The notes under the pieces: generated by a model
Seen by the model: the letters and a program-made list of their open reading frames with translations, nothing else
What the model was told of the DNA's origin: nothing
Databases searched by the model: none
Program-made: the position numbers and the translations under genes
From: Acidimicrobiia bacterium
Lineage (GTDB): Bacteria; Actinomycetota; Acidimicrobiia; Spongiisociales; SHLN01
Assembly (NCBI GenBank): GCA_041619515.1
Contig: JBFKDW010000006.1
Coordinates: 1 to 63,917, forward strand
Length of the DNA stretch: 63,917 nt
Direction: 5' to 3'
Shown: positions 6,115 to 27,181 of the stretch, one piece after another
Layout: the number at the start of each line of letters is the position of its first letter
Position numbering within the stretch: the first letter of the stretch is position 1

Positions 6115-6138
6115 GAGCCTCCCGCCCGCTACAGGGGG

Positions 6139-8024: not shown

Positions 8025-8109
8025 AGCGGACCTCGGGGTGACGAGACCGGCCAGTGTAGCCCACCCAGAGTGGCAGTGTCCCGCCTCTGCGGGCGAGGCT
8101 GACCGGCGT

Positions 8110-11100: not shown

Positions 11101-12252
11101 GCCCGTCGAGACCTCGAGATTGCGCACGGTCACCCCGGACGCGTTCTCGATCAGGATGCCGCCCGCCCCGCTGAGCCTGGCAACCGACGCCCCATCGCCG
11201 TCTGTCTGACCGAGCAAGGTCGTCTCGGCCGGCAGGACGATCGAGCCCAATGCAAAGTCGCCCGCCTCGAGGAAAAAGGTGTTGCCCGGCCCGGCCGAGT
11301 CGATCGCAGCCGCCACGTCCGAGCCGGGCGACAGCACGATGGCGCCGGGCGGCGGGGGTGAGAAACTGCAATCGGAGCCCACGCTGCTCGAGTCCAACAA
11401 CCCGCTCGTGACACCGTGAAACTCGAACACCATGCCGATATCGCACGCCCGGACCAGCATGGACCCGAACTCGCTGTTGAGGGCGAGCTCGCTCTCGGGC
11501 ACAGGTGGACCCAAACCGTGCAGATCGCGCCCGCCGACGCCGGACACGAAGTAGGGGATGCCGTCGGCCTCGAGCCGCTCGTAGATGTGGTCGTGCCCGG
11601 CAAACACCGCGTCGGCGCCCCAGGCACTGAAGGGCCATTGCAGGGCCGGATACGAGCCGTGGTGATCACCCGAGGAGAACGGTGGATGGTGCATCGCCAC
11701 CACCTGCCACGGGGCGGTGGAGGCCGCCAGCCCGGCTTGCAGCCAGGACTGCTGGGCAGCCATCTCGTCGGGGATCGTCAGGGCCGCTTCGGTGTCGACG
11801 ACGAAGACGTGCACCGGGCCGCGGACCACGTCGTAGTACCGCTCGTTTCCCGAGGTATTGGACGAGACCGCGGACGCACCCGGCAGGTCGAAATAGTCGA
11901 GGTACGCCGAGACCCCACCGGTGTCCCAATAGTCATGGTTGCCGAGCGCAGGAAAGAAGTCGCCGGCGGCAATGGCGGCGCCGTAGTAGGCGCCCACGTG
12001 GGTGGCGTAGTCGGCCGAGCCGTAGATGTTGTCACCGGTGGTGACCAGGAAATCCGGACCAAGGGTTCCGTTGACCAGACCGGCGACCGCCGCCTCATCC
12101 GCGTCGTCGTCTCCGTAGTCGCCGAACACGGCAAACTCGACGGTGAAGGGGCTGGTGGCTGCCACCGCCGGTGAAGGCATGGTTGCGGCGACCGCCAGCG
12201 AGCTGCTCAGTACCAGCCACGCGACCAGGGCGCCGTGTGTTGAACGTCGAAT
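8110..12252 (-). CDS. Secreted metallophosphoesterase + parallel beta-helix + LamG + Ig-like + 3x SdrD-B-like
   Basis: GDYG, GDNIY, GNHD, HHPP, GHDH motifs; beta-helix rungs (ISRNHI, VDENVI, IDNNY); LamG motifs WYHGAMSY and GLIDDVRIY. First ATG is 12180; the proposed start is ATT 12252. Confidence 0.85.
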   Translation of the reverse strand: MRRSTHGALVAWLVLSSSLAVAATMPSPAVAATSPFTVEFAVFGDYGDDDADEAAVAGLVNGTLGPDFLVTTGDNIYGSADYATHVGAYYGAAIAAGDFFPALGNHDYWDTGGVSAYLDYFDLPGASAVSSNTSGNERYYDVVRGPVHVFVVDTEAALTIPDEMAAQQSWLQAGLAASTAPWQVVAMHHPPFSSGDHHGSYPALQWPFSAWGADAVFAGHDHIYERLEADGIPYFVSGVGGRDLHGLGPPVPESELALNSEFGSMLVRACDIGMVFEFHGVTSGLLDSSSVGSDCSFSPPPPGAIVLSPGSDVAAAIDSAGPGNTFFLEAGDFALGSIVLPAETTLLGQTDGDGASVARLSGAGGILIENASGVTVRNLEVSTGAAGCIDDPKWMPGDPPPEPVCAPFLLNSATDVTIEKVITTSADSHCIYMFGSTSVTIADSDIGTCAGMGVEIIDSQALTISRNHIHPEYPVFVCCDLADGIHARNSTDILVDENVIAYGETNVMFQSVVNATIQSNLFINPLGPFPRGQHVQIWLTGGPRSSNILIDNNYGIATNDPGAAFPEDQEDAISLGFTDGVVVSNNYMYGGTSPSGCAYIADVSANEVEFRNNIADWTGQCGIGISSGTDQVVDGNYVLNSYLDDPAAGNTAIYVWKQYPDPCGPVQVTNNVATAIRADGSHAPFWNGGGCDPVTLSGNTFGPAAVPIVEEAIAAVAPPVDPGPYASLLPRFTPQGPIVWLPLDEGSGVVAGDASGFGNDATLMGGASFVPDSADGSSHSVGLDGVDDWVDMGTVDVAGPGLTVAAWFNADSFPGSHGDARIVSKATGSNEDDHIFMLSTILQGGQVRLRGRVRVDGATTTVIAGSGDLSPGTWYHGAMSYTGSAVNLYLDGVLVGSAGLTGAVDQDPGVTVAGGAQPPGAGPQFWDGLIDDVRIYQRGLSGGQVEALASNTVPTADDGSALSTGAPVEVTLRGSDADDDDLMFSITDPPSGGTLGPIGEVDCSAVNVCTAVVTYTPDSGSTGTESFAFRVDDGLGRSGPGTVVVTIDPTSISGTVFGDTDGDGVRDVGEDGLGGVKVTLRSAGPDGVFGGGDDGFSSVVTGADGAYVFGGLDPGLHKVSVKASTVPAGLMSSTGNNPTIVDLVAEVPETVDFGYADPAVLTSISGTVFGDTDGDGVRDVGEDGLGGVKVTLRSAGPDGVFGGGDDGFSSVVTGADGQYVFGGLDPGLHKVSVKASTVPAGLVLTTGNTPTIVDLAHFQREIIDFGYADPAVLTSISGTVFGDGDGDGVRDVGEDGLGGVKVTLRSAGPDGVFGGGDDGFSSVVTGADGQYAFGGLDPGPFKVSVKASTVPAGLVLTTGNNPTIIDLAHLQREIVDFGYQ
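8116..9108 (-). repeat. Three tandem near-identical 336-nt (112-aa) SdrD-B-like module repeats
   Basis: The anchor gtccccga recurs at 8417, 8753 and 9089, and the translated units are almost identical. Confidence 0.95.
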
Positions 12253-12334: not shown

Positions 12335-13405
12335 CTAGTTCGACGGGACGAACACGATGACGCGCACCGAATCGGTGAAGGTCCCGGAGGCGGTGGTCAT
12401 CGTCGCAGTCACGAGGTGAGACGCGGTGTCTTGCAGACCGGTCGACAGCCGTCCGGTGATGCTGGTGCCGGTCCCGAGTGGTCCGTCCAGATCGGACTCC
12501 CAACTGACGGTGAACGGAGCCGCACCGGGAACGTCGGCAGCGACCTCGAGTGCCACGTCGGCGACGAAATCCCCGGCGCCGGCATCGAAGGCGGCGGCAA
12601 AGGACTGGTTGTCGGCCGCGGGCGTACTGATCTCGATCGAGGCGAACTCACCGGCGGTCGGCAGCCACGTCATCTCGCCGAAGTCGAACTCGATATCGGC
12701 CACCACGGTGTCGTTCACGTTGGCGAGGAAGAACCGGGCGAGCGAGGGTCGAAAGATCCCGACGGTGTCATCTCCGGTGTCGTCCCAGTCGCCGGCCACG
12801 ATCCGATCGGACGGCACCCCGTAGTAGAACTCCTTCTCGGCGAACCCGGTGACGAGGTCGTTGCGCAGGTACACGAAGCCGCTCGACTCCCGGTACACGC
12901 CCACCGTGGTCACGCCATCGCCGTCGAAGTCGCCTGTGAAGGGACGGTCGCCCGGAACCCCGAAGAAGAACGAGAACTCGCCGACAACTGTGCCGAGCGT
13001 GTTGGCGATGAAGATCTCTCCGTTCCGGTACACGGCGAGGGTGTCGCAGCCGTCGTTGTCCCAGTCACCGACAAGGGGCAGGTCGCCGGGAATCCCGAAA
13101 TAGAAGGAGAGGTCGGCAACACCGAAATCGTTGGTGTTCCGCAGGTAGACGAATCCACTTGCCGGCCGGTACATGCCCACCGTGTCCACCCCGTCGCAAT
13201 CCCAGTCGCCCAGCAGGGGGATGTCGCCTGGGATCCCGTAGTAGAAGGTCGTCGCCTCGTCACCGCCCGTGCGCAGGTGCCACTGACCAGTGTTTGGATC
13301 GAACAGGGCAACCCGGGCGTCGGACGCGAACGCGGGAGCAACCGCCGCCAGCATGAGCAGCGACATCAGGCAAATGACCATCCAATGAACGCGCGACCTG
13401 AGCAC
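12335..13405 (-). CDS. Secreted FG-GAP/VCBS-like repeat (GDWDxDG) propeller protein with C-terminal Ig-like domain
   Basis: Signal peptide; four full FxxGxPGDxPxxGDWDxDGxDTxGxYR repeats plus one partial; WESDLDGPLGTG; ends VPSN. Confidence 0.85.
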   Translation of the reverse strand: MLRSRVHWMVICLMSLLMLAAVAPAFASDARVALFDPNTGQWHLRTGGDEATTFYYGIPGDIPLLGDWDCDGVDTVGMYRPASGFVYLRNTNDFGVADLSFYFGIPGDLPLVGDWDNDGCDTLAVYRNGEIFIANTLGTVVGEFSFFFGVPGDRPFTGDFDGDGVTTVGVYRESSGFVYLRNDLVTGFAEKEFYYGVPSDRIVAGDWDDTGDDTVGIFRPSLARFFLANVNDTVVADIEFDFGEMTWLPTAGEFASIEISTPAADNQSFAAAFDAGAGDFVADVALEVAADVPGAAPFTVSWESDLDGPLGTGTSITGRLSTGLQDTASHLVTATMTTASGTFTDSVRVIVFVPSN

Positions 13406-13634
13406 CGGGAAACCTCTCTCTCGTGGGTGGAGGAGTCTAGGAGCGCCGGGCGGCCCCGAAGTCGACTCCCGTGGTCGTTCCCGTATTGGGGGCGAAGACC
13501 CTCACCCGAATAGCGCGAAAACTTTCCACAATCCCGCCTGGCACTAAACCGAGCATATACGTAGGGTCGGCTACGGAGAGTGTGGGGGGCCGGACACCGT
13601 TCAGCCCTTCGAAGTCGAGGCGAAGGACAGGACC

Positions 13635-16600
13635 ATGTTTGTATCGAGATTCCCCGTACGAACGCACAGCATCTTTCTCACGGTCGCCCTACTGGCGGCC
13701 CTTCTCATTGCACCACCGGCGGCGATTGCCGCCGACCCGGTGCCGGGCGCTGAGTTCACGCTCACCATCCTTCACAACAACGATGGTGAGTCCCAGCTCA
13801 TCAACGCCGGCAGCGGGTTGGAGGATTTCGGCGGCGTTGCCCGCTTCAAGACCCTCGTCGACGGGCTGAGAGCCGATGCGGCCGCCAGCGGCAACGGCGT
13901 GCTCATGCTCTCCTCCGGTGACAACTTCCTCGCCGGGCCCGAGTTCAACGCCAGTCTCGAGAACGGCGTACCCTTCTACGACACCATCGCACTCGAAGCG
14001 ATCGGCTACGACGCCGTTTCCCTCGGCAACCACGACTTCGACTTCGGGCCCGACGTCCTGGCCGACTTCCTCGCCGGGTATACCGACGCCCCCCAGTATC
14101 TCTCCGCCAACCTCGACTTCACCGGCGAGCCCTCCCTGCAAGCTTTCGTCGACTCGGGTGTCATCGCACCGAGCACGGTGGTCACCACCGCCGGCGAAGA
14201 CATCGGCATCATCGGCGCCGTCACCCCCTCCCTCCGCTCCATCTCCAGCCCGCGCAACGTCGTCATCGATTTCGACGTGGCCGGGGCCATCCAAACCGAA
14301 ATCGATGCGCTCACCGCGGCCGGCATCGACAAGATCGTGGTCATCAGCCATCTGCAGGACATCGATGAGGACGTGGCGCTGGCCGCCAACCTGTCCGGAG
14401 TCGACGTCATGATCGCCGGCGGCGGCGACGAGCTGCTCGCCAACCCGGGCGATCCTCTGGTCCCGGGTGAGGAAGGTGATGTCTTCGGCCCGTACCCGAT
14501 CTTCGCCACGGGCGGCGACGGAGCCCAGATACCGGTGGTGACAACCCCCGGTGAATACAAGTACGTCGGCCGGCTCTCGGTTGGCTTCGATGCCGACGGC
14601 AACGTCACGGACGTGGGTGCCGACAGCGGTCCCAAGGTCGTCGACGGCACCCTGGTTGCCGACCCGGGCCTGCAAGCCTCGGTGGTCGATCCGGTCGTAG
14701 CGGCCGTCGCCACCCTCGACGCCACCGTCATCGGGACCAGTGAGGTGGCGCTCGACGGCACCCGGGCGAGTGTCCGGAGCGTCGAGAGCAACGAGGGGAA
14801 TTTGCTGGCCGATGCCCTCAAATGGCAGGCCACCGAGCTGGCCGCCGACTTCGGCGTGGGCGCACCCGACGTGGCTATTCAGAACGGCGGCGGTATCCGC
14901 AACAACACGATCATCCCGGCCGGCGACATCACGCTGCTGGACACCTTCGACATCGCCCCCTTCTCCAACTTCGTCTCGGTCATCGAGGACATTCCCCGCA
15001 CCCAGTTCCGGGCCATACTCGAGAACGCCGTCTCCCAGGTTCCTGGGGGCGGTCGCTTCGCCCAGATAGCCGGCTTCTCATTCGTGTACGACCCCTTCGG
15101 CATTCCCATGGTCATCGACGATGAGACCGGCGTGGTCACCCAGGTGGGCAACCGCATCGTCGACGTGGTCCTCGACGACGGCACAGTGGTGGTCGACGGC
15201 GGCAAGGTGGTGGCCGGTGATCCCGTCACCATCGCCACTATCGACTTCCTGGCGCGCGGCGGCGACCAGTACCCGTTCAGCGGCGCTTCGTTCACCTCGA
15301 TCGGCGTGTCCTACCAGCAGGCGCTGGCCAACTACATCGTCGACGGGCTCGGTGGCTCCATCACCGCCGCCGGTTACCCCGAAGGCGGCGAGGGTCGCAT
15401 CGCCACACTGCCCGCTCCGACCGATTTTGGGCTCGTCATCCACCACAACAACGACGGTGAAAGCCAGCTGATCAACGCCGGCAGCGGCCTCGAGGACTTC
15501 GGCGGGGTCGCCCGTTTCGGCCGCCTGCTCGACGGCCGGCGCCGCATAGCCTCCAACGAGCGGTTCGGCAGCATCCTGTTGTCTTCGGGCGACAACTTCC
15601 TGGCCGGACCCGAGTTCAACGCCAGCCTGGAGAATGGCGTGCCGTTCTACGACACCATCGCCATGGACAAACTCGGCTACGACGCCATCGCCATCGGCAA
15701 CCACGACTTCGACTTCGGCCCCGACGTGCTGGCCGACTTCATCGAGGGCTACAGCGAGACGATGCCACCCTATGTCTCGGCCAACCTCGATTTCACGGGT
15801 GAGCCGCGTCTGCAGGCACTGGTCGATGCCGGGCGGATCGTTTCGAGCACCGTCATCAGCGAACGCGGGGTCGACATCGGCATCGTGGGTGCCACCACTC
15901 CCAACATCGACTTCATCTCGAGCCCGCGCAACGTCGAGGTGATGGACGACGTGGCCGGCATCGTGCAGGCCGAGGTGGACGCCCTCACCGCCTCGGGCGT
16001 GAAAATCATCATCCTCATCAGCCACCTGCAGGACATAGACGAGGACATCGCGCTCGCCGCCATGTTGTCGGAAGTCGACGTCATGATCGCCGGCGGCGGC
16101 GACGAACTGCTCGCCAATCCCGGCGACCCGCTGGTTCCCGGCGAGGAGGGCGACGTGTTCGGGCCGTACCCGATCGTCGCCACCGACGCCGACGGCGCCG
16201 AGGTGCCCGTCGTCACCACCCCCGGTGAGTACAAGTACGTGGGCGAGCTGTGGATCGGCTTCGACCCCGACGGCAAGACCACCCTCTGGGGAGGCCGTCC
16301 CATTCCGGTGAAGGGCGCCTCGGATGCCGACATCTACAACGCAGCCGTGCAGCCCGTCATCGATGCGGTTGCCACGCTCGACGCCACCGTGATCGGAACG
16401 AGCGAGGTCGACCTCGACGGCACCCGCACCAGCGTGCGCAGCGTCGAATCAAACGAAGGCAACCTGATCGCCGACGCCCTCCGCTGGCAGGCCGGTGAGC
16501 TGGCCGCCGAGTTCGGCGTTGCCGTTCCCGATGTCGCCTTGCAGAACGGGGGCGGCATCCGCAACAACACAGTCATCGCCGCCGGCGACATCACGCTGCT

Positions 16601-19600
16601 GGACACCTTCGACATGGTGCCGTTCCCGAACTTCGTGTCGGTGCTCGAAGACATCCCGCGTGATCAGTTCAAGGAGATCCTCGAGAACGCTTATTCGGCC
16701 GTGCCGGGTGATGGGCGTTTTGCCCAGGTTTCCGGGTTCAGCGTCGTCTACGACGCCGGCCGGACCGCGCAGGTCCTCAACGACGACGGGACCGTCGCGG
16801 TGGCTGGTGAGCGGATCATCGACGTGATGCTGGACGACGAGACGATGCTCGTGGAAGACGGTGAGGTCGTGGCGGGTGATCCGATCACAATCGCCACCAT
16901 CGACTTCCTCGCCAGAGGCGGCGACCAGTACCCCTACCGGGGCGCGCCGTTCACGAACGTCGGCGTCAGCTACCAGCAGGCGCTCGCCAACTACATCATC
17001 GACGGGCTGGGCGGAGCCATAACCGCCGCCGACTATCCCGAGGGCGGCGAGGGCCGCATCACCGACGTCGGAGGCGAGCCGATCGAGGGGCCGTTCACAG
17101 CCGTCTACGAGATTCAGGGAAGCGGCGATGAGAGCCCGCTGGCCGGCGAGACGGTCGAGGTCGCCGGCACCGTCACAGGAGTCTTCCCAGGCCTGGGCGG
17201 GTTCTTCCTCCAGGACGCCGAAGGCGACGGTGACACGACCACCAGCGACGGGATATTCGTGGCGGCCGGCAACGGCGTGGCCGTCGGCGATCGCGTCGAG
17301 GTGCGCGGGGTCGTCGAGGAGTTCTTCGAAGAGACCCGCCTCGTCGATGTGGACGCCGTCGAAGCGGAGGAAGGCGGAAGCGTGCCTCCTGCGGCAGCCG
17401 TCTCTCTCCCGCTCGGCGAGGGTGCGTCACTCGAGGCCTACGAGGGCATGCTGGTGACGTTCGAGACCCTGTACGTCACCGACACCTTCAACCTGCACCG
17501 CTTCGGAGAGGCAGTGCTCGCCGAGGGCGGAGTGCTCGTCAACCCGACCGACATCGCCGAGCCCGGCGATGCCGCCAACGCGGTGGCGGCAGCCAACGCC
17601 GCCCGCCAGATCGTGATCGACGACGGCTCGAACGCCGAGTTCCCCGACGAGGTCCCGTACTTCGGCGAGGACGGGACGCTCCGCCGGGGTGATGCCGCCA
17701 CCGGGATCACGGCCAACCTGTCGTTCAGCTTCGGGGCGTACAAGCTGCAGCCGACCTCCGAAGTCTCCTTCGAGCGGTTGAACCCCCGGCCGGCGGGACC
17801 CGCCGACGTGGGTGGGAACGTGAAGGTGGCGAGCTTCAACGTGCTCAACTTCTTCTCCACCATCGACGACGGTGACAACGGCGCCCGTGGTGCCGACTCC
17901 GAGGCGGAGAAGGCCGCTCAGCTCGAAAAGCTGGTCGCAGCCATCACCGGCCTCGGGGCCGACGTTGTCGGTTTGCAGGAGATCGAGAACAACGGCCCGG
18001 TCGCCATCGGCGAGCTGGTCGACGCCCTCAACGCCGCCGAAGGCGCCGGCACCTGGGCGGCCGCGGCCGACCCGGAATATCCCGGCGGCCTGGAAGCCAC
18101 CAACGCCATCAAGGTGGGGATCATCTTCAAGCCGGCATCGGTCACGCCCGTCGGCGTCACCGAAGTGTCTGAGGACCCGATCTTCGCCGCCGACCGGCCC
18201 CCGATCGCCCATGCGTTCACAGCCTTCGGCGACACATTCACGGTGATCGTCAACCACTTCAAGTCGAAGAGCCCGAGCAATGCCGAGGGCGCCGACCTGG
18301 ATCAGGGCGACGGCCAGGGCGCTTACAACGCCAGGCGGACGGCCCAGGCGGGAGCGCTCATCGGCTTTGCGCTCGAGCGCATGGCGGCGGTGGGCGACGC
18401 CGATCTGCTGGTGATCGGTGACTTCAACAGCTATGCCATGGAAGACCCGATTACCACGCTGGAGAGCTCCGGCTTCCTCCTCAACATCGTCAAGCGCCAC
18501 CTGGCGCCCGAGGACAGCTACTCGCTGGTCTTCTTTGGAGCCCAGGGCCTGCTCGACGGTGTCTTCGCATCCAGCGCCGCAGAGAGCAAGGTCACCGGCA
18601 TCGACATCTGGCACATCAATGCCGACGAGCCGCGCGTCCTCCAGTACAACGACGACATCGTCGATCCGGCCGAGAGGTCGAGTGACTTCAACCAGCCGGT
18701 GTCGCAGCCGGACGAGTTCTCCTCGTCTGACCACGACCCGCTGCTCGTCGGGCTTGCGCTCGGCGGTGCGCGCCAAGTGGCTTCGGCCCTCAACAACCCG
18801 CGGGGGCTCGGCATGGGTCCCGATGGGACCATCTACGTTGCGGAATCCGGAGTCGGTGGGCTCGAGCCTTGCATCGAAGGCCCGGAAGGCACCGAGTGCC
18901 TGGGCGCCACCGGCGGGGTGTCGGCCATCGACAGCGCCGGGCAGTCTCGCGTCGCCGCCGGGCTGCCCTCCCTGGCCGGTCCCGAAGGCTTTGCCGCCAC
19001 CGGGCCCAGCGATGTTGCCGTCGCCGCCGATGGGACGATCCGGGCGCTGATCGGGCTCGGCAACAGCCCGGCCGTCCGTGACGAGGTGCTGACGCCCGCT
19101 GGTGGCGGCAACCTGGGACAGCTCGTCAACATCGGGGCGGACGGCACTGCCACGGCCGTCCTGGACGTGGCCGGATTCGAAGGATCGGCCAACCCCGACG
19201 GCGGTGAGATCGACAGCAACCCGACTGCCATCATCCACACCGACGACGGGTATCTGATCGTCGACGCCGGCGGCAACTCGCTGCTGAAGTTCGACGGGTC
19301 GACGCTGAGCACAGTGGCCGTGTTCCCCGAACGGTTGGTGCCGGCACCGCCCTTCATCCCGGTGCCCGAGATCCTGATGCAGTCGGTGCCGACGTCGGTA
19401 GCCGTGGGACCCGACGGCGCCTACTACGTGGGCGAGTTGACCGGATTCCCGTTCCCTCCGGGTGGGGCCAATGTGTACCGGGTCGACCCTGCCACGGGTG
19501 ACGTGAGCGTGTTCGCCGACGGCTTCACCAATATCGTGGATGTCGCGTTCGGGCCGGACGGCTCGCTGTACGTGGTCCAGATCTCGTCGAGCAGCATTCT

Positions 19601-22600
19601 GTTCGGTGAGTTCGACGGCGCCATCATCAGAGTGGCGCCCGACATGAGCCGCGAGGTCGTGTTCGACCGCTTGTTTGCACCGTATGGAATTGCCGTCGAC
19701 CAATCGACCGGTGACCTCTACGTGTCGAACTGCAGCGTGTGCCCAGGGCTGGGTGAGGTCCTGCGCATCACGGGCGAAGCGCCGTCGGCACCGATCAGCC
19801 TCGGCTACAGCGCCCGCAACGACCGGTCCTCGCCCCAGGTGCTCGACGGGGCCACCGTCTCGGGCAAGATCTATCCGTTCGTGCTGCCGCTCGATCCCGG
19901 TCTCGGCTTCACGACGGTGGACTTCTACCTGGACGGTCAGAAGGCCCGCACGGAGTATCTGGCGCCGTACGATTTCGCAGGAGGCTCCCTTACGCACGCG
20001 ACGGCGTGGGACACGGCCACCACCAGCGACGGCTCCCATACCATCCGGGCGGTCGGCAACCTGCCGGACGGGGGAACCGTCGAGACCAGCGCCACGTTCA
20101 CCGTGGACAACGGCCCGGCGCCCGCCGACTTCACGATGGAGGTCTCGCGCAGCGAGTTCCGCACGGACGCGGTTCCGCTGGAAGGTGCCGTGCTCAGCGG
20201 CAGGGTGTACCCGTTCGTTTCGCCGTTGTTCCCGGAGGGCTTCGAGACCTTCGGCACGGTGAGCTTCTTCCTCGACGGCGTCCATTTCCACACCGAGTAC
20301 CAGGCGCCCTATGACTTCGTGTCGGGCGGGATCGACAAGGCCAACGAGTCGTGGGATACCACGACGGTGGCCGACGGCCAACACACCATTCGGGTACAGG
20401 CCAACCGGCCCGGAATGGTGCCGTTGGTGACGGAGGTCACCTTCAGCGTCGCCAACAACGTCCCCGAAGTGGAGCCGATACGCTTCGCGACGTTCAACGC
20501 CTCGCTCAACCGCTTCAACGCCGGCGACCTAGTCGCCGATCTTTCGACGCCGGACAACGAGCAAGCCAAGGCGGTCGCCGAGATCATTCAGCGGGTTCGC
20601 CCCGAGGTCCTCCTGCTGAACGAGTTCGACTACGACGCCGACGGTGAGGCGGCGAGGCTGTTCCAGGCGAACTACCTGTCCGTGTCGCAGAACGGTGCCG
20701 AGCCGATCGTCTACGACTATGCGTTCAGCGCACCGTCGAACACCGGGGTGCCGTCGGGGTTCGACCTGAACAACGATGGGGAGGTAGGCGGACCGGATGA
20801 CGCGTTCGGGTTTGGGTTCTTCCCGGGCCAGTTCGGAATGCAGGTGTACAGCCAGTACCCGATCGACCTGGCCAACGTCCGCACGTTTCAGGAGTTCCTG
20901 TGGGCCGACATGCCGGGAGCCCTGATCCCGGTCGATCCGGCCACCGCCGAGCCGTGGTACTCGGAGGAGGAACTGGGAAGCCTTCGCCTGTCCTCCAAAT
21001 CCCACTGGGACGTACCCATCACGGTCGGCGACGGCACCGTCAACTTCCTCGTGAGCCACCCGACCCCGCCGGTGTTCGACGGCCTGGAGGATCGCAACGG
21101 GACCCGCAACTCCGATGAGATCCGGTTCTGGCGTGATTACGTCAACGGCGACTCGTACATGTACGACGACAACGGCGTGGCCGGTGGCTGGTCCGGCGAC
21201 TACTTCGTGATCGCCGGAGACCTGAACTCCGATCCCAACGACGGCGACAGCCTCTTCGGTTCTATCCAGCAGCTGCTGGATTCGGCGCGGGTGAACACCA
21301 CCGTCACACCTTCCAGCGCCGGGGCCGTAGAGCAAGACGGGTTGCAGGGTGGCGCCAACCTGAGCCACACCGGAGACCCGGCCCACGACACGGCCGACTT
21401 CAACGACAATCCGGCGCCGGGCAACCTGCGGGCCGACTATGTGCTCCCGAGCAACAACCTGGCGATCGACGACTCGGGCGTGTTCTGGCCGCAGAGCACC
21501 GATCCGCTGTTCCCCCTCGTGGGCACCTTCCCGTTCCCGAGCTCGGATCACCGCATGGTGTGGGTCGATGTCCTCCCGGGAGATCAGCCGCTCGCCGACC
21601 CGGCCGGGTTCGTTGAAGACGAGTTCTGGCACTTCGACGTGACGGTCGAGAACCTCACGAACGGCCAACCGCTCACACCGGTCCTGGTCGTCGCCCACGA
21701 CCCGGCTATCTCGGCCTGGACGGTGGGCGAGGCAGCGCCCATCGGGGTGCAGGAGCTGGCCGAGAACGGAAACGGAGTGCCGCTGGCCGGTTTCTTCACG
21801 AGCAGGCTGAGCCAGGCCTCCGACGGAACGATCGGGTCGGGGCCGCTGGTGCCGGCCGCCGACCCCGGCGGCTCAGGTTTCTCGTCGAGCGAGACGTTCG
21901 GCATCCACGCCAGGGCAACGGACGTCATCACCCTGGCGTCCATGCTGATCTGCACCAATGACGGCTTCGCCGGGCTCAACGGGGCCGCCCTGCCCGGCGA
22001 CGGCGAGACGGTGGTGTACGAGTTGTTTGCCTACGACGCCGGCACCGAGACCAACACCGAGGACTTCGCCGACATCGTGCCCCCCTGTCAGGGCCTGATC
22101 GGCGTGGGATCGGACGATCCGGGAACCGGCGAGACCAATCCCGACCTGGCCGAGGGAGGCGTCATCGCCGCTCACCCCGGCATTGTCGGCGGGGTCGATC
22201 TCGACCCAGCGGTGCACGGTTGGACGGATCCGGTCGCGCGGGTGACGATCAGCCACGGCGCGGCCGAGCCCTTCGTGATGACGGGAGAGATCGACGGCGC
22301 CCCGTATCGCATCGCCGCTCCGGGCGACCCGGACGACTGGAACGGAGTGCTGCTGCTGTACGCCCACGGATACGTGGATGCCCTCGACCACCCGTCGGAG
22401 GGCACCGATCGCGGAGACCCGGAGTCCGCACCGGGCGGCGAAGCCGCCGAAGCTGCCCTCGTGGCCGAGGGCTTTGCAGTTGCCGGATCGCAGTACAAGA
22501 CGGACGGGTGGGCGGTTGAGGACGGCATCGTCGACACCGAGGCCCTCGCCGCCTTCTTCACCGAGAACCTGGCGGAGCCGGAGGCCACCGTGCTGTGGGG

Positions 22601-24848
22601 ATTCTCCATGGGTTCGGTGGTTGCCGGCTACTTTGCAGAGAACAGCGACTCGGTAGACGGTGTGATCGCCGCCTGTTTCGTCGGCGCGGGAGCCCCCCGA
22701 GCCTTCGACGGCGGCCTGGCGCTCACCATCGCCTACGCGGCGGCCTTCGGGTTCCCGGAAGCATGGGGCACACCGGGCGACGTCCGGGACGACCTCGACT
22801 TCGAGACCGAAGTCCTGCCCGTGCTCAGTTCCCAAGTGTTCGCCGACCCGGCCGACCCGAGCGCCGGGCTCAACCCGGCCAACGTCGGGCTGTTCACATT
22901 CATACAGATGGTGAGTGGGATCCCGGCCGAGGACTTCTTCAGCGAGTGGCTCTTCACCGACATGTATTTCGCCACCGAGGGCCAGGCCGAGGCGGAGCGC
23001 CGCGCCGGGGGACCGATGGCAGGCAACGTCGGCCACGTGTACTCGGTGTCGGCCGAAGAGCGAGCGCTGCTCGCCTCTCTCGGCCTCGATGAGGACGCCG
23101 TCGACGGCCTGCTGGCAACCATGAACTCGATGAAGTTCACGCCGGACCCGGCGGCGCGCACCTACCTGGAGACGAACTACGAATACACGGGCTCGCTGAC
23201 GAAGCCGGTCTTGACCTTGCACACCACGGTCGACGGCCTGGTTCCCGTCGAGCATGAGTCGGCGTATGCCGAAACCGTGAATTCGGCCGGGGCCGGCGGT
23301 CTGCTCGTCCAGACCTACACGGACTCATATCCGCCGGGGCAGTCGTCGGGTCACTGCACGTTCACCCCCGAACAGCTGGCCGCGTCGCTGAACGGCATGC
23401 TGACGTGGCTCGCCACCGGAATACCTCCCGCACCCGAGCTCTTCCCTGAGGCGATCGGCTTCGTGCCCGGCTTCCAGCCCGGCCCGTGGCCGCAGCCACC
23501 GCCGCCGCCGCCGCCGATGCCGTTCCCCGGGATCATTCCGACCCCGGATGGGTTCCAACCCGAAGGGGTGGCAATCGGTGACGGAACCGATTTGTTCGTC
23601 GGCTCGCTCGGCCGCTTGGGAGATGACGGCGTCACCGTCACCGGCGGTGCCATCTACAAGGCGGATCTGGCCACGGGCGACGGAGCGGAGCTGGTTCCAC
23701 CGGAGCCGGGCAAGGTGGCGGTCGGGATGACGGTTGATTCCCGGACGAATTACCTGTGGGTCGCCGGCGGGCCGTTCGGCAATGCGTTCGTGTACGACGC
23801 CGACACCGGCGCCGAGCTCGCCGAGATCAGCCTGGCGGGCGTGGCGCCCTTCGAGACGCTGGTGAACGACGTGGTGGTGACCGGTGATGCCGCCTACTTC
23901 ACAGACTCGTTCAGACCGTATTTCTACCGTGTCGCACTGGACGGGGACGGGACCTTGCCGGATCCGGTGATCGTCGAAGAGATCCCACTCGGTGGCGACT
24001 TCCCGTTTGTCGCAGGGGGAATCAACGCCAACGGGATCGTGGCGGCGAACGGAGCGCTCCTCATCAATCACACTGATGCCGGCCGGCTGTTCCGGGTCGA
24101 CCCGGCCACCGGCACCGCCACCCAGGTGGACCTGGGAGGGGCGGCCATCCCGAACGGTGACGGTCTCGTGCTCGACGGCACCACGCTGTACGTCGTCCAG
24201 AACTTCCTGAATCAGATCGGCGTCGTGGAACTCGACGCCGGATTCGAATCCGGAGTCTTGGTCGGCACGATCACCTCGCCGGACTTCCGCATCCCGACGA
24301 CGGCAGCCCAATTCGACGGGGCTCTCTATGCCGTCAACGCGCGGTTCGATGTGGCACCTCCTCCGTTCCCAGGGTCGCCCCAGGCAGACATCACAACCGA
24401 GTTCGAAGTCGTGCGGGTACAGAAAGCCAGCGTGCAGCCGCTTCCGCCGCCCCCGGAACCGACCGCATCCCTAGAAGCCAGCCTGGATGGAGCATCGGAG
24501 ATACCCGGCCCGGGCGACGACGACGGCACCGGCTCGGCGACGGTCGAGATCAGCGGCACCACCGTCACGTGGTCGATCACGGTCGCCGATATCGCCATGC
24601 CGACCGCCGCTCACATCCACGTCGGTGAAGCGGGTGTGTCCGGAGGGGTGGTGGTGGACCTGCTGGGCGACGGAGCTTTCACCGACAACGGTGACGGCAC
24701 GTTCAGCGCATCCGGCGCGGTAGAAGCCACCCCCGAAGTGGCCGCCGCCATCGCGGCCGGCCCGGCCGGCTACTACGTGAACGTCCACAACGGCGATTTC
24801 CCTCCCGGCGCGGTTCGCGGCCAACTGACGCAGGCGGCCGGGGGCTGA
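13635..24848 (+). CDS. Giant secreted multidomain hydrolase (2x 5'-nucleotidase, ExeM/NucH nuclease, ScyD/E propeller, 2x Ig, EEP, spondin, alpha/beta hydrolase, SMP-30 propeller, CHRD)
   Basis: Single 3737-aa ORF with RBS and signal peptide. Motifs: GDNF/GNHDFD/NGGGIR/GGDQY twice; VASFNVLNFF...NHFKSK...SDHDP; RFATFNASLNR...SDHR; VTVENLT...ICTNDGF; WGFSMG...GHC; FQPEG...NGDGL; YVNVH...GAVRGQL. Confidence 0.9.
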   Translation: MFVSRFPVRTHSIFLTVALLAALLIAPPAAIAADPVPGAEFTLTILHNNDGESQLINAGSGLEDFGGVARFKTLVDGLRADAAASGNGVLMLSSGDNFLAGPEFNASLENGVPFYDTIALEAIGYDAVSLGNHDFDFGPDVLADFLAGYTDAPQYLSANLDFTGEPSLQAFVDSGVIAPSTVVTTAGEDIGIIGAVTPSLRSISSPRNVVIDFDVAGAIQTEIDALTAAGIDKIVVISHLQDIDEDVALAANLSGVDVMIAGGGDELLANPGDPLVPGEEGDVFGPYPIFATGGDGAQIPVVTTPGEYKYVGRLSVGFDADGNVTDVGADSGPKVVDGTLVADPGLQASVVDPVVAAVATLDATVIGTSEVALDGTRASVRSVESNEGNLLADALKWQATELAADFGVGAPDVAIQNGGGIRNNTIIPAGDITLLDTFDIAPFSNFVSVIEDIPRTQFRAILENAVSQVPGGGRFAQIAGFSFVYDPFGIPMVIDDETGVVTQVGNRIVDVVLDDGTVVVDGGKVVAGDPVTIATIDFLARGGDQYPFSGASFTSIGVSYQQALANYIVDGLGGSITAAGYPEGGEGRIATLPAPTDFGLVIHHNNDGESQLINAGSGLEDFGGVARFGRLLDGRRRIASNERFGSILLSSGDNFLAGPEFNASLENGVPFYDTIAMDKLGYDAIAIGNHDFDFGPDVLADFIEGYSETMPPYVSANLDFTGEPRLQALVDAGRIVSSTVISERGVDIGIVGATTPNIDFISSPRNVEVMDDVAGIVQAEVDALTASGVKIIILISHLQDIDEDIALAAMLSEVDVMIAGGGDELLANPGDPLVPGEEGDVFGPYPIVATDADGAEVPVVTTPGEYKYVGELWIGFDPDGKTTLWGGRPIPVKGASDADIYNAAVQPVIDAVATLDATVIGTSEVDLDGTRTSVRSVESNEGNLIADALRWQAGELAAEFGVAVPDVALQNGGGIRNNTVIAAGDITLLDTFDMVPFPNFVSVLEDIPRDQFKEILENAYSAVPGDGRFAQVSGFSVVYDAGRTAQVLNDDGTVAVAGERIIDVMLDDETMLVEDGEVVAGDPITIATIDFLARGGDQYPYRGAPFTNVGVSYQQALANYIIDGLGGAITAADYPEGGEGRITDVGGEPIEGPFTAVYEIQGSGDESPLAGETVEVAGTVTGVFPGLGGFFLQDAEGDGDTTTSDGIFVAAGNGVAVGDRVEVRGVVEEFFEETRLVDVDAVEAEEGGSVPPAAAVSLPLGEGASLEAYEGMLVTFETLYVTDTFNLHRFGEAVLAEGGVLVNPTDIAEPGDAANAVAAANAARQIVIDDGSNAEFPDEVPYFGEDGTLRRGDAATGITANLSFSFGAYKLQPTSEVSFERLNPRPAGPADVGGNVKVASFNVLNFFSTIDDGDNGARGADSEAEKAAQLEKLVAAITGLGADVVGLQEIENNGPVAIGELVDALNAAEGAGTWAAAADPEYPGGLEATNAIKVGIIFKPASVTPVGVTEVSEDPIFAADRPPIAHAFTAFGDTFTVIVNHFKSKSPSNAEGADLDQGDGQGAYNARRTAQAGALIGFALERMAAVGDADLLVIGDFNSYAMEDPITTLESSGFLLNIVKRHLAPEDSYSLVFFGAQGLLDGVFASSAAESKVTGIDIWHINADEPRVLQYNDDIVDPAERSSDFNQPVSQPDEFSSSDHDPLLVGLALGGARQVASALNNPRGLGMGPDGTIYVAESGVGGLEPCIEGPEGTECLGATGGVSAIDSAGQSRVAAGLPSLAGPEGFAATGPSDVAVAADGTIRALIGLGNSPAVRDEVLTPAGGGNLGQLVNIGADGTATAVLDVAGFEGSANPDGGEIDSNPTAIIHTDDGYLIVDAGGNSLLKFDGSTLSTVAVFPERLVPAPPFIPVPEILMQSVPTSVAVGPDGAYYVGELTGFPFPPGGANVYRVDPATGDVSVFADGFTNIVDVAFGPDGSLYVVQISSSSILFGEFDGAIIRVAPDMSREVVFDRLFAPYGIAVDQSTGDLYVSNCSVCPGLGEVLRITGEAPSAPISLGYSARNDRSSPQVLDGATVSGKIYPFVLPLDPGLGFTTVDFYLDGQKARTEYLAPYDFAGGSLTHATAWDTATTSDGSHTIRAVGNLPDGGTVETSATFTVDNGPAPADFTMEVSRSEFRTDAVPLEGAVLSGRVYPFVSPLFPEGFETFGTVSFFLDGVHFHTEYQAPYDFVSGGIDKANESWDTTTVADGQHTIRVQANRPGMVPLVTEVTFSVANNVPEVEPIRFATFNASLNRFNAGDLVADLSTPDNEQAKAVAEIIQRVRPEVLLLNEFDYDADGEAARLFQANYLSVSQNGAEPIVYDYAFSAPSNTGVPSGFDLNNDGEVGGPDDAFGFGFFPGQFGMQVYSQYPIDLANVRTFQEFLWADMPGALIPVDPATAEPWYSEEELGSLRLSSKSHWDVPITVGDGTVNFLVSHPTPPVFDGLEDRNGTRNSDEIRFWRDYVNGDSYMYDDNGVAGGWSGDYFVIAGDLNSDPNDGDSLFGSIQQLLDSARVNTTVTPSSAGAVEQDGLQGGANLSHTGDPAHDTADFNDNPAPGNLRADYVLPSNNLAIDDSGVFWPQSTDPLFPLVGTFPFPSSDHRMVWVDVLPGDQPLADPAGFVEDEFWHFDVTVENLTNGQPLTPVLVVAHDPAISAWTVGEAAPIGVQELAENGNGVPLAGFFTSRLSQASDGTIGSGPLVPAADPGGSGFSSSETFGIHARATDVITLASMLICTNDGFAGLNGAALPGDGETVVYELFAYDAGTETNTEDFADIVPPCQGLIGVGSDDPGTGETNPDLAEGGVIAAHPGIVGGVDLDPAVHGWTDPVARVTISHGAAEPFVMTGEIDGAPYRIAAPGDPDDWNGVLLLYAHGYVDALDHPSEGTDRGDPESAPGGEAAEAALVAEGFAVAGSQYKTDGWAVEDGIVDTEALAAFFTENLAEPEATVLWGFSMGSVVAGYFAENSDSVDGVIAACFVGAGAPRAFDGGLALTIAYAAAFGFPEAWGTPGDVRDDLDFETEVLPVLSSQVFADPADPSAGLNPANVGLFTFIQMVSGIPAEDFFSEWLFTDMYFATEGQAEAERRAGGPMAGNVGHVYSVSAEERALLASLGLDEDAVDGLLATMNSMKFTPDPAARTYLETNYEYTGSLTKPVLTLHTTVDGLVPVEHESAYAETVNSAGAGGLLVQTYTDSYPPGQSSGHCTFTPEQLAASLNGMLTWLATGIPPAPELFPEAIGFVPGFQPGPWPQPPPPPPPMPFPGIIPTPDGFQPEGVAIGDGTDLFVGSLGRLGDDGVTVTGGAIYKADLATGDGAELVPPEPGKVAVGMTVDSRTNYLWVAGGPFGNAFVYDADTGAELAEISLAGVAPFETLVNDVVVTGDAAYFTDSFRPYFYRVALDGDGTLPDPVIVEEIPLGGDFPFVAGGINANGIVAANGALLINHTDAGRLFRVDPATGTATQVDLGGAAIPNGDGLVLDGTTLYVVQNFLNQIGVVELDAGFESGVLVGTITSPDFRIPTTAAQFDGALYAVNARFDVAPPPFPGSPQADITTEFEVVRVQKASVQPLPPPPEPTASLEASLDGASEIPGPGDDDGTGSATVEISGTTVTWSITVADIAMPTAAHIHVGEAGVSGGVVVDLLGDGAFTDNGDGTFSASGAVEATPEVAAAIAAGPAGYYVNVHNGDFPPGAVRGQLTQAAGG

Positions 24849-24881
24849 GCAACGTTGCCGCAACGGCTGCGGCCGCCCCTC

Positions 24882-26147
24882 TCACCCGACCGGCATGGTC
24901 GCATCGGGGCGGGAGGATTTCGGATCGGCATAGAGCCGGCCCAACGACCATCGGAACCCCAGCCAGCGAACGAGACCGAAGCCGAGCATCGAGAGCGGGA
25001 CCGCATAGGACTCGGTGATCACCGAACTGAACGCGATGACGATCTGCACGGCGGCTCCGACGACATAGATCTTGAAGATGTCGACCTCGTGACCGCCTCC
25101 TACGAGCTGTGACTCGTCGGAGAACAACATGCCCCAGATGATGTGGGTGAAGATGGTCGCCGCCGTCAGGAACTCGACGGTGTAGGCCTTCTCTACCAGC
25201 CATGCCATGGGATTGCCCGGCCAGTCGAAGCCGAGCCAGGCCAGGAAGAGCAGCCCGGATCCCACCACCACCGCGTATGCGATGCGCGCCAATCGGAGAC
25301 CCTCGGCCCGATTCCCGTCGCGCCCCGCCACCAGTGAGGGCGGGTTGAGGACTGCCGAGACCCCGGTGACGAACACGAGCAACGGGCGGGCTGCCACTCG
25401 GGCAGCCTCGGCGAAGCCGAGGAATTCGTCACCGGCGACGACGGCGACGATGGCGGCGGCCACGAACGTGGCGCCGACGGGGAGCAGGCCAAAACCGGTG
25501 AGCCACCGCCCCGACGCTGCCAGGCTGCGGAACCCGTAGACCTCACCAGGGGCAGGGCTGGCATTTTGGTGTGCCAACACCAGGCCCGCAGTGATCGAGA
25601 ACGTGTTCGCGAGGGCAAGCGCCCCAAAGGGAACCCAGGCCTCGTCGAAGCCGAGCAGGATCGCTCCGGCAATGAACGCCAGCGCCACGCTCAGCTGGAC
25701 GACCGACGTGACCGCCGCCAGCCATGATCTCCCCGCCTGGTGCATCACACGGCGGACGTGGTCCTGAATGGGTGACAGGATCGCAGTGATCACGGTCGTG
25801 ATTGTGAGCGGTATCACCAGTGACGCCGCTGCGCCCGCCGCCGGGATGAGGGCAAGCAGAACGACGAGGCCGCCCAGCATCGCCACCGGCATGCCGGTAG
25901 GCAGCGTCAGCCGAAACCCGCTCAGCTGCTCGGATTGCGGCAGGTCGAGCAGCCGCACTTCTCCCGGCAAGAGGACCAGCTTGAACGGGACGATGGCGGC
26001 CACGAGGAAGATCGCGAAGAAAAGGGCATAAACGCCCAGTTCGGCGCTGTCGAAGTAGCGGGCGGCGTACACGCCGGTGGCGAACGTAGCCAGGGCGGCC
26101 GACCCGGCATCGACCAGGCCTCCCGGGATGGATGTCGTGAGACGCAT
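24882..26147 (-). CDS. Wzx-like oligosaccharide flippase / polysaccharide export membrane protein
   Basis: About 12 hydrophobic segments; N-terminal LVDAGS..LATF...AARYF...LGVYAL pattern typical of the family. Confidence 0.65.
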   Translation of the reverse strand: MRLTTSIPGGLVDAGSAALATFATGVYAARYFDSAELGVYALFFAIFLVAAIVPFKLVLLPGEVRLLDLPQSEQLSGFRLTLPTGMPVAMLGGLVVLLALIPAAGAAASLVIPLTITTVITAILSPIQDHVRRVMHQAGRSWLAAVTSVVQLSVALAFIAGAILLGFDEAWVPFGALALANTFSITAGLVLAHQNASPAPGEVYGFRSLAASGRWLTGFGLLPVGATFVAAAIVAVVAGDEFLGFAEAARVAARPLLVFVTGVSAVLNPPSLVAGRDGNRAEGLRLARIAYAVVVGSGLLFLAWLGFDWPGNPMAWLVEKAYTVEFLTAATIFTHIIWGMLFSDESQLVGGGHEVDIFKIYVVGAAVQIVIAFSSVITESYAVPLSMLGFGLVRWLGFRWSLGRLYADPKSSRPDATMPVG

Positions 26148-26225
26148 GAACAATTGCTATCGGCTGGGATCCCGGGTGAGAGTAGCGATCTCGACGCCGG
26201 GCACACGCCGGTGGCGGGCCGGTGA

Positions 26226-26636
26226 TCATTCGAGCAGGCGAGCCGGGATGAACTCGGCCCGGCTGGTCGCCTCCACCGACTGTTCACCGAACAGCAGCAC
26301 CCGGAACGTGCCTCGAACCGTCACGGCTACGGTGCGCGGCTCCCACGACGGGTTGGAGTTGCAGCGGCAGCGCACGAGCCTGGATCCGTTGGCCAGCGCG
26401 AACATGGCCGCTTCCTCAGCCGCCGAGCCGGCCGCCCCGAATGGGCGAAACGTCACCGGGGCAGCGGCCAGCGCCGCTGCATCGGCCGCCGCCTGCGCGC
26501 GGGCGTACCCCGCCAGGTACTGGCCGACGCCCACCACCGCCAGGGAGAGCAGGAGGCTCGCAGCCGCAACTGCCACCAGCAGCAGGGTCACCGACCCACG
26601 ATCCCGGGGTTGGGCAGGCACCGCCCGCCGGCTCAT
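26226..26636 (-). CDS. Rv3654c-like TadE/TadG pseudopilin
   Basis: DRGSVT plus hydrophobic helix, AQAAADAAALAAA; ATGA overlap with the upstream gene. Confidence 0.85.
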   Translation of the reverse strand: MSRRAVPAQPRDRGSVTLLLVAVAAASLLLSLAVVGVGQYLAGYARAQAAADAAALAAAPVTFRPFGAAGSAAEEAAMFALANGSRLVRCRCNSNPSWEPRTVAVTVRGTFRVLLFGEQSVEATSRAEFIPARLLE

Positions 26637-26998
26637 TGCTCGACCCGCATGACGGCGCGCGCCGACACCTCGACATCGAGGCCGCCGAACAACGACGCCG
26701 CAAACCGGTACGGGACCCGCACCCTGACCTCGGCCGGTGCTCCGACGCGGTGGGGCCGGTTGACACTGACCCGGGCACGGGCTGCCACCCCGTCGGGAAG
26801 TGCTGCCCGAGCTGCGGTGACGGCGCCGGCCGGGTCGACATCGGTCGCCGCCTGCCTCGCCCCCTCGCGGGCGGCGTGGGTGACCTCCAGCTGAAGCCGG
26901 GCCACCGAGACCAGCTCGACGGAGGCGACCAGCACCACCAGCACCAGCGGCACCACGATGGCAAACTCGGCCACCGAGGACCCCGAGTCGCTCCGCAT
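26633..26998 (-). CDS. tadE: TadE-like pseudopilin
   Basis: DSGSSVAEFAIVVP prepilin motif, AAREGAR. Confidence 0.85.
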   Translation of the reverse strand: MRSDSGSSVAEFAIVVPLVLVVLVASVELVSVARLQLEVTHAAREGARQAATDVDPAGAVTAARAALPDGVAARARVSVNRPHRVGAPAEVRVRVPYRFAASLFGGLDVEVSARAVMRVEQ

Positions 26999-27162
26999 CA
27001 GCTGCCGGCAATCCGCAGCACCCGGCGGGCCACCGTGTCGAAGATCTCCTCCAACACGCCCGTCGAGCTTGCCCACACGATGAGGGCAAGGGCTATGAGC
27101 GCCGCCGCCACGATCACGAGCGCGTACTCGGCGGTGGCCTGTCCAGAATCGCTGTGGAACAT
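26998..27162 (-). CDS. Flp/DUF4244-type major pilin (54 aa; not in the ORF track)
   Basis: MFHSDSGQATAEYALVIVAAALIALALIVWASSTGVLEEIFDTVARRVLRIAGS; RBS AAGGAG; G|xxxxEY Flp motif; TGATG coupling to tadE. Confidence 0.9.
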   Translation of the reverse strand: MFHSDSGQATAEYALVIVAAALIALALIVWASSTGVLEEIFDTVARRVLRIAGS

Positions 27163-27181
27163 GTTTCTCCTTTCAATGGTT

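Follow-up and report, generated by a model that had tools for sequence, protein, structure and literature searches.

We find that a 63,917-nucleotide stretch from an Acidimicrobiia bacterium (contig JBFKDW010000006.1 of assembly GCA_041619515.1; the whole stretch is called the window here, and the genome G000) encodes one giant protein of 3737 amino acids, in which nuclease and nucleotidase domains are joined in a single chain to a series of other domains. In the reading that we favor, and hold to be probable, the gene specifies one genuine protein, predicted to be exported by the Sec pathway, whose front likely digests extracellular nucleic acid to nucleosides and phosphate and whose tail is a variable set of unrelated modules. 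The comparisons show the open reading frame, the identity of its modules, the keeping of their motifs, the orthology and the changing cassette content; secretion, every activity, the nutrient role and the manner in which the tail varies are inferred. The initial annotation of this DNA had likewise proposed a single secreted chain with a front half fit to convert DNA to nucleosides and phosphate, and the comparisons described here lend support to that part of it.

The frame opens with ATG at position 13635 of the forward strand and proceeds to 24848 with zero internal stops. Profile searches recover the eleven modules first proposed, within about 30 bases of the positions assigned to them, and the G+C content at third codon positions is 0.81-0.90 across every module. 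The mature chain, of about 383 kDa, is strongly acidic (D+E 14%, K+R 4%). Judged by eye and by hydropathy, its N-terminus resembles a Sec signal peptide, having a hydrophobic core and an AXA site without a twin-arginine. As had been stated, no transmembrane helix, LPXTG motif or SLH domain is found, hydropathy marking one marginal window besides the signal.

An open reading frame of this size in a short-read metagenome-assembled genome could be an assembly chimera of several neighbouring genes, the more so as no single public contig spans the whole gene and the two nucleotidase copies are about 79% alike in DNA blocks. Yet G004, an independent genome of the same genus, carries a 4,048-residue version (open frame of 4062 codons) with identical module order and identical junctions in one frame, at 70-88% identity per module; it differs by one additional 317-residue domain ahead of CHRD. 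The flanks of the gene are syntenic in G004 and in G005. The stretch is present in six public runs from three studies (five marine, one soil), of which X1-X4 may be the source sample. Pieces from run X1 (15309-15717, 16607-21080, 21051-22081, 22052-22817 and 22788-27000) cover all ten inter-module junctions at a depth of 11-13, and run X2 likewise bridges all ten (depth about 10-13 for X1 and X2). Runs X5 and X6, from two other studies, bridge ExeM/ScyE, ScyE/Ig, EEP/spondin, spondin/hydrolase, hydrolase/propeller and propeller/CHRD; no indels are listed across the bridging contigs at 97% likeness. Given the congeneric gene of the same order and the public contigs over the junctions, a chimera is effectively refuted, and we give it practically no chance. 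The junction check that the initial annotation had proposed comes out in favor of a real gene. The public runs listed for the stretch include no RNA run.

Relatives of the gene separate a conserved front from an optional tail. With the Ig pair as marker, a full-length match is found in 6 of 14 family genomes (5 of 8 in the genus, 1 of 4 in the sister genus, 0 of 2 in a third genus); the three genus members lacking a match are 72-89% complete. Protein searches add four alleles (P0003, P0004, P0046 and P0047; P0002 corresponds to G004, and P0007 is almost identical to G005). The ten alleles show at least nine architectures, every one a subset of one fixed order (Table 1). Nucleotidase and ExeM modules are present in 8/8 alleles whose front is assembled, the second EEP domain in 9 of 10 and ScyE in 4 of 10; among the nine alleles in which a tail is seen, spondin occurs in three, the hydrolase in five, the last propeller in four, the 317-residue domain in four, a terminal CHRD in four and a canonical D-x-H nucleotidase in two. 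The conserved front therefore consists of the signal peptide, one or two nucleotidase domains, ExeM/NucH, the Ig pair and usually the second EEP domain; ScyE, spondin, hydrolase, propeller, CHRD, fasciclin and the 317-residue domain are optional, and no C-terminal module is invariant. The cassettes meet at short, often proline-rich linkers and are cleanly removable. Among the alleles in pieces, exact contig overlaps join G008, the tail of G005 and the tail of G003; the two contigs of G002 overlap at 94% only, and the front of G003 has no overlap to its middle. The 317-residue domain (residues 3618-3934 of L017, 5661-17846 on the reverse strand; also in G005, P0003 and P0047, absent from G000) is 76-80% conserved among four alleles and matches no Pfam family, and its Atlas leads all score below 0.9.

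Table 1. Module order in the ten alleles (SP, signal peptide; NT, 5'-nucleotidase-like module; NT', canonical D-x-H nucleotidase; Spon, spondin_N; ABH, alpha/beta hydrolase; Prop, last propeller; FAS1, fasciclin; X317, 317-residue domain)
Allele	Architecture
G000	SP-NT-NT-ExeM-ScyE-Ig-Ig-EEP-Spon-ABH-Prop-CHRD
G004	As G000, plus X317 before CHRD
G005	SP-NT-(gap)-ExeM-ScyE-Ig-Ig-FAS1-EEP-Spon-FAS1-CHRD-CHRD-(138 aa)-Prop-X317-CHRD
P0003	SP-NT-NT-ExeM-Ig-Ig-EEP-X317
P0004	NT-NT-ExeM-Ig-Ig-FAS1-EEP-NT'-CHRD
P0046	ExeM-Ig-Ig-EEP-NT'
P0047	ScyE-Ig-Ig-FAS1-EEP-ABH-Prop-X317
G003	NT-NT-ExeM-Ig-Ig-EEP-ABH-stop
G008	SP-NT-ExeM-Ig-Ig-ABH-stop
G002	NT-NT-ExeM-Ig-Ig-EEP-(contig end)

The enzymatic motifs of the front are conserved. 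The nuclease module scores 541 bits with the ExeM/NucH model NF033681 (cut-off 300) over model positions 1-546 of 546, and the metal- and phosphate-binding residues (E, H, N, D, H) are present as GLQEIE, NHFKSK, GDFN and SDHDP, identified by motif and not by alignment to SO_1066. It is not ExeM proper: with NF033680 it scores 231 bits against a cut-off of 1300, and it has no C-terminal transmembrane helix. ExeM activity needs both the YhcR-like and the EEP domains (PMC6085458), and both parts are present in the giant. Both EEP domains of the chain keep the N, E, H, GDxN, D and SDH motifs. For the second one, a sequence search of the PDB found nothing, and single-sequence fold prediction gave a predicted local distance difference test score (pLDDT) of 31; it occurs fused with phytase, phytase-like and PhoD domains in L039 and L041. 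Nucleotidase, ExeM and EEP also lie side by side as separate genes, all three in G004:C42 and G032:C31, nucleotidase and ExeM in G000:C24 and G008:C84, and ExeM and EEP in G012:C129 and G021:C87. These neighbours, together with the fusions of the second EEP domain, provide independent evidence for one extracellular phosphoester pathway.

The two nucleotidase-like modules carry PF02872 and match the Thermus structure 2z1a (E=1e-55), with its two-domain arrangement of metallophosphoesterase and 5_nucleotid_C. They retain GD, GNH and SH; in both copies D-x-H reads NND-G-E and GHSH reads GGGDE, so that neither holds the canonical dimetal ligands D-x-H and G-H-x-H/Q, and both score under every NCBIfam cut-off for UshA, NadN and Nt5e. 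PDB matches to the domain include no close solved structure for a D-x-E site. The variant is not decay, since 55 of the 60 nucleotidase domains scanned in giant matches carry D-x-E (the remaining five were unparsed). These matches, 45 drawn from 1893 scored candidates, show the D-x-E site to be widespread; 38 of them carry choice-of-anchor I alongside the variant, the D-x-E motif being common to the giant and these database proteins. The D-x-E domain may be the atypical-PhoA domain of CDD entry cd08162. A Crocosphaera paper reports the identical conflict between the names phoA and 5'-nucleotidase (PMC12260270); the atypical phosphatase of a recent preprint is a different, eukaryotic one (bioRxiv 10.1101/2025.04.09.648040), and nucleotidases and secreted proteins go unmentioned in the accessible part of PMC12008989.

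Judging from these motifs, the ExeM/NucH module would cut DNA or RNA, the second EEP domain would likely aid the hydrolysis of phosphoester bonds, and the one or two variant-site nucleotidase modules would strip phosphate. The nucleosides could enter the cell through Bmp-type ATP-binding cassette (ABC) transporters and be catabolised through DeoC, and the phosphate could enter through Pst. Bmp lipoproteins are encoded in 14/14 family genomes and deoC in all five searched; G004 has a gene run of Bmp, ABC transporter, deoC, ribokinase and nucleoside hydrolase, the names being read off translations. Purine auxotrophy was considered as a motive and set aside, purM, the one pathway gene looked for, being present in 5/5 genomes searched. 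The modules appear as beads on short proline-rich linkers, an arrangement whose benefit is more likely co-location than substrate channelling. The initial annotation spoke of an assembly line; the term suits the front three or four catalytic modules and does not extend to the rest.

Does the chain serve phosphate nutrition as a whole? The view first taken was that of a Pho-regulon multi-phosphatase in which every module, ScyE, spondin and CHRD included, serves phosphate scavenging. The choice-of-anchor I proteins that share the nucleotidase variant point in this direction, some of them also having PhoD, PhoX or phytase-like domains, as do the phytase and PhoD partners of the second EEP domain; CHRD recurs with nucleotidase or ExeM in four giant matches outside the clade (P0011-P0013 and P0017) and in L028, L041, L086, L090 and L091. 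PhoD is found in 0/14 family genomes and PhoX-like matches in 2/14, so the chain could be their main secreted phosphatase, and phoA-nucH of Synechocystis is Pho-controlled (PMC1906773).

The upstream region does not agree with this view. The pstS promoters of G003, G004 and G005 share the box GTT(C/T)AC-N5-G(G/T)T(A/T)AC, and G010 has it with one base changed; this box, derived from three pstS promoters, we take to be the Pho box of the clade by its likeness to actinobacterial PhoP boxes. On the coding strand, with up to two mismatches, it is in 0/4 regions upstream of the giant and likewise missing upstream of four nucleotidase or ExeM genes; one opposite-strand match upstream is at chance level (0.26 per kb). 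Its absence makes control of the giant by phosphate starvation doubtful, and salvage of nucleoside carbon and nitrogen is equally plausible. What the upstream regions of the giant do share is CGCGAAAWCTTT, a likely regulator site that is kept even in the non-syntenic G008 and has a single exact copy in G000 (Table 2). A search for its regulon gave nothing convincing at ten pst, nucleoside or nucleotidase-ExeM loci, and a generic promoter and terminator scan gave results at chance level. A loss of Pst from G000 was also considered and rejected: PstS is not found there, but the pstSCAB-phoU-regulator operon falls in the assembly gap between C109 and C72, C109 ending within the pstS box.

The tail gives further reason to doubt that every module acts on phosphate. 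Among the best 120 of 194 longer ScyE proteins (596-2000 residues searched), none carries PF02872 or PF03372 or matches the nucleotidase, ExeM or EEP modules; 21 have CHRD and 18 a chlorophyllase/cutinase-type hydrolase. Likewise, 0/150 spondin relatives (the best 150 of 1729) match nucleotidase, ExeM or EEP, and a Pfam scan of 40 longer ones finds CHRD, SGL propeller, DUF4331, RskA_C, cupredoxin, GSDH, DUF302 and wall anchors. In the sister genus, spondin is part of a DUF4331-fasciclin-spondin-Ig protein behind whose gene stand, in G008, a TPR gene and an extracytoplasmic function (ECF) sigma factor; in G010 and G013 an ECF-like sigma gene follows it. In these listed relatives ScyE and spondin are joined to CHRD, hydrolases, anchors, DUF4331, RskA and SGL propellers and never to nucleotidase or EEP domains, so that ScyE, spondin, fasciclin, CHRD and the propellers form, by their fusions, a cohort of their own. 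The tail modules are moreover dispensable within the gene. Taken together, these findings make a phosphatase in which every module participates an unlikely reading. The proposal that fusion ties ScyE, spondin and CHRD to nutrient scavenging fails for the first two, which are also missing from most orthologues, and holds weakly for CHRD, a promiscuous domain with peptidase S55 and DUF4331 as further fusion partners in G000. Fusion within one giant protein is weak evidence for shared function. We noted in the same searches a recurrent architecture of ScyE with three to five CHRD domains (three or five in 17 of the 120, P0158, P0163 and P0182 among them), which is a better lead to the function of ScyE and CHRD than the giant is.

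The ScyE module scores 348 bits with NF033206 (cut-off 80), and its model matches NHL and lactonase propellers equally (Z 26-28; root-mean-square deviation 2.2-3.0), a tie through which the fold names no function; compared by motif for the E/N/N/D calcium ligands, its blade-1 motif is PRG, not PEG. The role of ScyE is undefined even in Nostoc punctiforme (PMC4870267). The hydrolase is under the Pfam cut-off, has no significant sequence match in the PDB and is placed by Atlas with S9/hydrolase clusters (0.96-0.98); its predicted triad lies in GFSMG (2989), TTVDGLV (3197) and GHCTF (3239). The last propeller apparently keeps calcium ligands E/N/N/D (E3308, LVND in the region of N3409, NANG and NGDG), three of which align with Asn290, Asn339 and Asp381 of 9M58, the Glu being placed by a PEG motif at the expected position. 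The corresponding lactonase of D. radiodurans SodC shows weak activity on 2-coumaranone only, its natural substrate being unknown (PMC12362111). ScyE, spondin, the serine hydrolase, the calcium propeller and CHRD would be accessory binding and esterase cargo, to which relatives add fasciclin, extra CHRDs, a canonical nucleotidase and the 317-residue domain.

It is conceivable that binding is the main function, the giant being a surface or matrix protein whose Ig, fasciclin, spondin, CHRD and propeller domains attach to cells or sediment polymers and whose nuclease remodels the extracellular DNA of biofilms. Several tail modules are without a catalytic signature and are fused elsewhere to SLH and CWB2 wall anchors, the locus is flanked by other large secreted proteins and by a tad pilus cluster, and ExeM affects Shewanella biofilms (PMC6085458). 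Yet two nucleotidases and a second EEP domain are unnecessary for dissolving a matrix, nowhere is the protein less conserved than in its binding-type modules, and relatives hold nucleotidase, ExeM and EEP as clusters of separate genes; we therefore rate this possibility low, below the phosphatase reading. Less probable again, and not exclusive with the reading we favor, is a polyprotein that is exported once and then cut at its linkers to free independent enzymes. Every catalytic cassette also exists as a stand-alone secreted protein in related genomes, and the clean removal of cassettes at short linkers would suit such processing; no common cleavage motif is visible across the linkers and no protease gene is seen adjoining the locus. 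Short proline-rich linkers are typical of stable multidomain proteins.

Several observations weigh against a secreted nucleic acid-digesting chain with an exchangeable tail. The nucleotidase metal site departs from that of UshA and CD73 at three ligand positions, and C24 of G000 holds a second pair of nucleotidase and ExeM genes, making the front half partly redundant. Bmp and deoC are also found in family members without the giant; their presence is compatible with the model without proving it. No anchor is found on the giant, neither LPXTG, SLH and transmembrane helix nor the GDWDGDG repeat domain of the clade, which is in no allele (a C-terminal helix being absent by hydropathy), so retention of the benefit is unexplained; the protein may be released into pore water, or be retained through its size or by non-covalent binding. 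Five of the ten alleles are incomplete (G002, G003, G005 and G008 are in pieces, and several database proteins are partial). Finally, module trees show no significant conflict. In approximately unbiased (AU) tests the (G000,G004) clade was rejected neither for the hydrolase (p=0.46) nor for ExeM (p=0.31), and the trees give no sign of inter-module recombination; cassette exchange is accordingly not demonstrated, and differential loss from a longer ancestor fits equally. P0003 and P0046 belong to one starred clade and are 96% identical in EEP, yet end in different modules. No junction repeats that could serve as a shuffling mechanism are evident among the 20 largest of 42 repeat families. The tail may have been gained once and then repeatedly lost or exchanged. 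As for G008, of the sister genus, its giant is non-syntenic with a single nucleotidase, and nucleotidase and ExeM are 79% similar to those of G000 while LeuC is 77% similar; the giant is not found in three other genomes of that genus, and lateral transfer into G008 is possible on these comparisons.

Tentatively, the gene may be a single-chain evolving secretome: a carrier of nuclease and nucleotidase, with a non-Pho promoter of its own, to which a sediment lineage appends, and from which it drops or trades, whole secreted enzymes and binding modules, some of them taken from an envelope system linked to ECF sigma factors (DUF4331, fasciclin, spondin, CHRD, ScyE). We regard this as a good deal less secure than the reading that we favor. 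If true, it would represent a scaffold-free alternative to the cellulosome that brings unrelated hydrolases together to necromass, built around a new nucleotidase chemistry of D-x-E dimetal type.

The giant can be set beside several known systems. Like ExeM of Shewanella oneidensis (SO_1066) and NucH, it has an OB/YhcR-like region with an EEP domain above the family cut-off and with catalytic motifs kept; unlike them, it has no lamin-tail domain or GlyGly-CTERM anchor that we could find, and its nuclease is embedded with nucleotidases in a chain of 3.7 thousand residues. It shares a nuclease, a D-x-E type nucleotidase domain and further phosphoesterases, in one locus or chain, with Synechocystis phoA-nucH (sll0654-sll0656) and with the choice-of-anchor I, nucleotidase, ExeM, phytase, PhoD and PhoX fusions of cyanobacteria, Proteobacteria and Bacteroidota (for example P0025, P0014 and L041); it differs from both in lacking choice-of-anchor I (PF22494), phytase, PhoD, PhoX and RTX, in its Sec-type signal, in having no Pho-like box, and in a non-phosphatase tail that varies inside a genus. 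With UshA, CD73 and 2z1a it has in common the two-domain fold by sequence, the GD and GNH motifs, the SH ligand and the conserved C-terminal domain, whereas D-x-E replaces D-x-H and GGGDE the GHSH/GHSN-type motif. The D. radiodurans SodC lactonase (9M58/9M59, PMC12362111) is the best PDB match of the last propeller and shares its calcium ligands, but the giant lacks the superoxide dismutase domain. ScyE of Nostoc punctiforme scytonemin synthesis (PMC4870267) resembles its counterpart by family score and as a secreted beta-propeller; in the giant this is an optional internal cassette, and no scytonemin context is seen in the window. The initial annotation did not recognise the full architecture, and it is indeed rare: more than half of the giant is covered by one other of the 45 giant matches, and we did not find it in print, in a literature without most subscription papers or supplements. 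Giant multi-phosphoesterase chains are already common in databases; new is a tail whose unrelated modules vary. The front has the enzymology that one would expect; what merits further attention is the varying tail, the promoter of non-Pho type and the variant metal site. Among the major pools of carbon, nitrogen and phosphorus in sediments is extracellular DNA, with few known degraders (PMC8289736, which in its accessible part mentions Actinobacteriota once); the locus singles out one Acidimicrobiia genus as likely to degrade it, and can serve as a marker gene. Its ten alleles amount to a natural deletion series for the contribution of each module, and would offer a clear example of how giant proteins evolve as cassettes are gained and lost.

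Table 2. Features of the giant gene and its upstream region (window positions)
Feature	Position	Strand	Evidence or remark
Conserved upstream motif CGCGAAAWCTTT, likely regulator site, not a pstS-type box	13514..13525	+	4/4 genomes with 5' end
CGTAG-N6-CTACG element with TAGGGT, likely -10 box (putative promoter)	13560..13575	+	3/3 same-genus genomes aligned, not G008
Predicted Sec signal peptide, residues 1-32	13635..13730	+	Sequence, hydropathy; 78-83% identity in G004, G005, P0003
5'-nucleotidase-like module 1, variant metal site (NND-G-E, GD, GNH, SH, GGGDE)	13743..15410	+	
5'-nucleotidase-like module 2	15411..17084	+	72% identity with module 1, identical motifs; missing in G008
OB-fold/YhcR-like region and EEP domain, ExeM/NucH family nuclease	17091..18764	+	N, E, H, GDFN, D, SDH motifs intact
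ScyD/ScyE-family NHL/SMP-30-like beta-propeller, optional cassette	18765..19784	+	NF033206; model pLDDT 95.5; 4/10 alleles
Two Big_7-like Ig spacer domains	19791-20123, 20130-20462	+	Weak, E about 1e-3, under cut-off
Second EEP domain (RFATFNASLNR type), likely phosphoesterase	20469..21578	+	PF03372, E=3e-24; catalytic motifs intact
Bacterial spondin_N domain, optional cassette	21612..22262	+	NF038123, 137 bits (cut-off 40)
Alpha/beta hydrolase (S9/DUF6351-like), predicted Ser-Asp-His triad, optional cassette	22269..23489	+	
Poly-proline linker	23490..23519	+	Sequence
SMP-30-type propeller, akin to D. radiodurans SodC lactonase domain, optional cassette	23520..24428	+	PF08450; PDB 9m58, E=3e-18
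C-terminal CHRD domain, optional cassette	24462..24833	+	PF07452, E=3e-26

Other large secreted-type proteins are encoded around the giant. On the reverse strand, positions 3628-12180 of the window hold three that share SdrD_B domains, combining a metallophosphoesterase, beta-helix and LamG (1356 residues), GSDH and PKD (597 residues) and an arylsulfotransferase (829 residues); the content of G004 differs here, which indicates a variable secretome island. Between this group and the giant, at 12338-13405 of the reverse strand, lies an open reading frame with a domain of about 190 residues made of GDWDGDG repeats of about 47 residues, with no Pfam match in the frame. The domain is found at the N- or C-terminus of 37 open reading frames of G000, many with signal-like N-termini, and is likely a clade-wide surface-sorting or wall-binding module. 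Directly downstream of the giant, tad/Flp pilus genes (TadE/G-like, secretion ATPase) occupy 26229-29783 of the reverse strand, syntenic in G004 and G005.

In G008 the giant and the DUF4331-fasciclin-spondin-Ig gene converge, and the Ig of the latter shares 48% identity with the first Ig of the giant; such DUF4331-fasciclin-spondin-Ig loci were seen at L021 (G008:C107, 4084-8207), L033 and L034. In L041 (2427-9797), a giant phosphatase of a Rhodospirillaceae member, CHRD has a nucleotidase-matching stretch on either side and seems to be an insertion in the nucleotidase domain. Elsewhere in G000, a 6338-codon frame (C14:26530-45544, L118) with many beta-helix, SdrD_B and Ig/cadherin-like domains probably encodes a giant adhesin. 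A family combining peptidase S55-like, CHRD and GDWDGDG-repeat domains occurs at L094, L087-L089, L092, L102 and L103, and in G000 the first of these is a tandem pair of such proteins (C17:26935-29901 and about 32000-34986).

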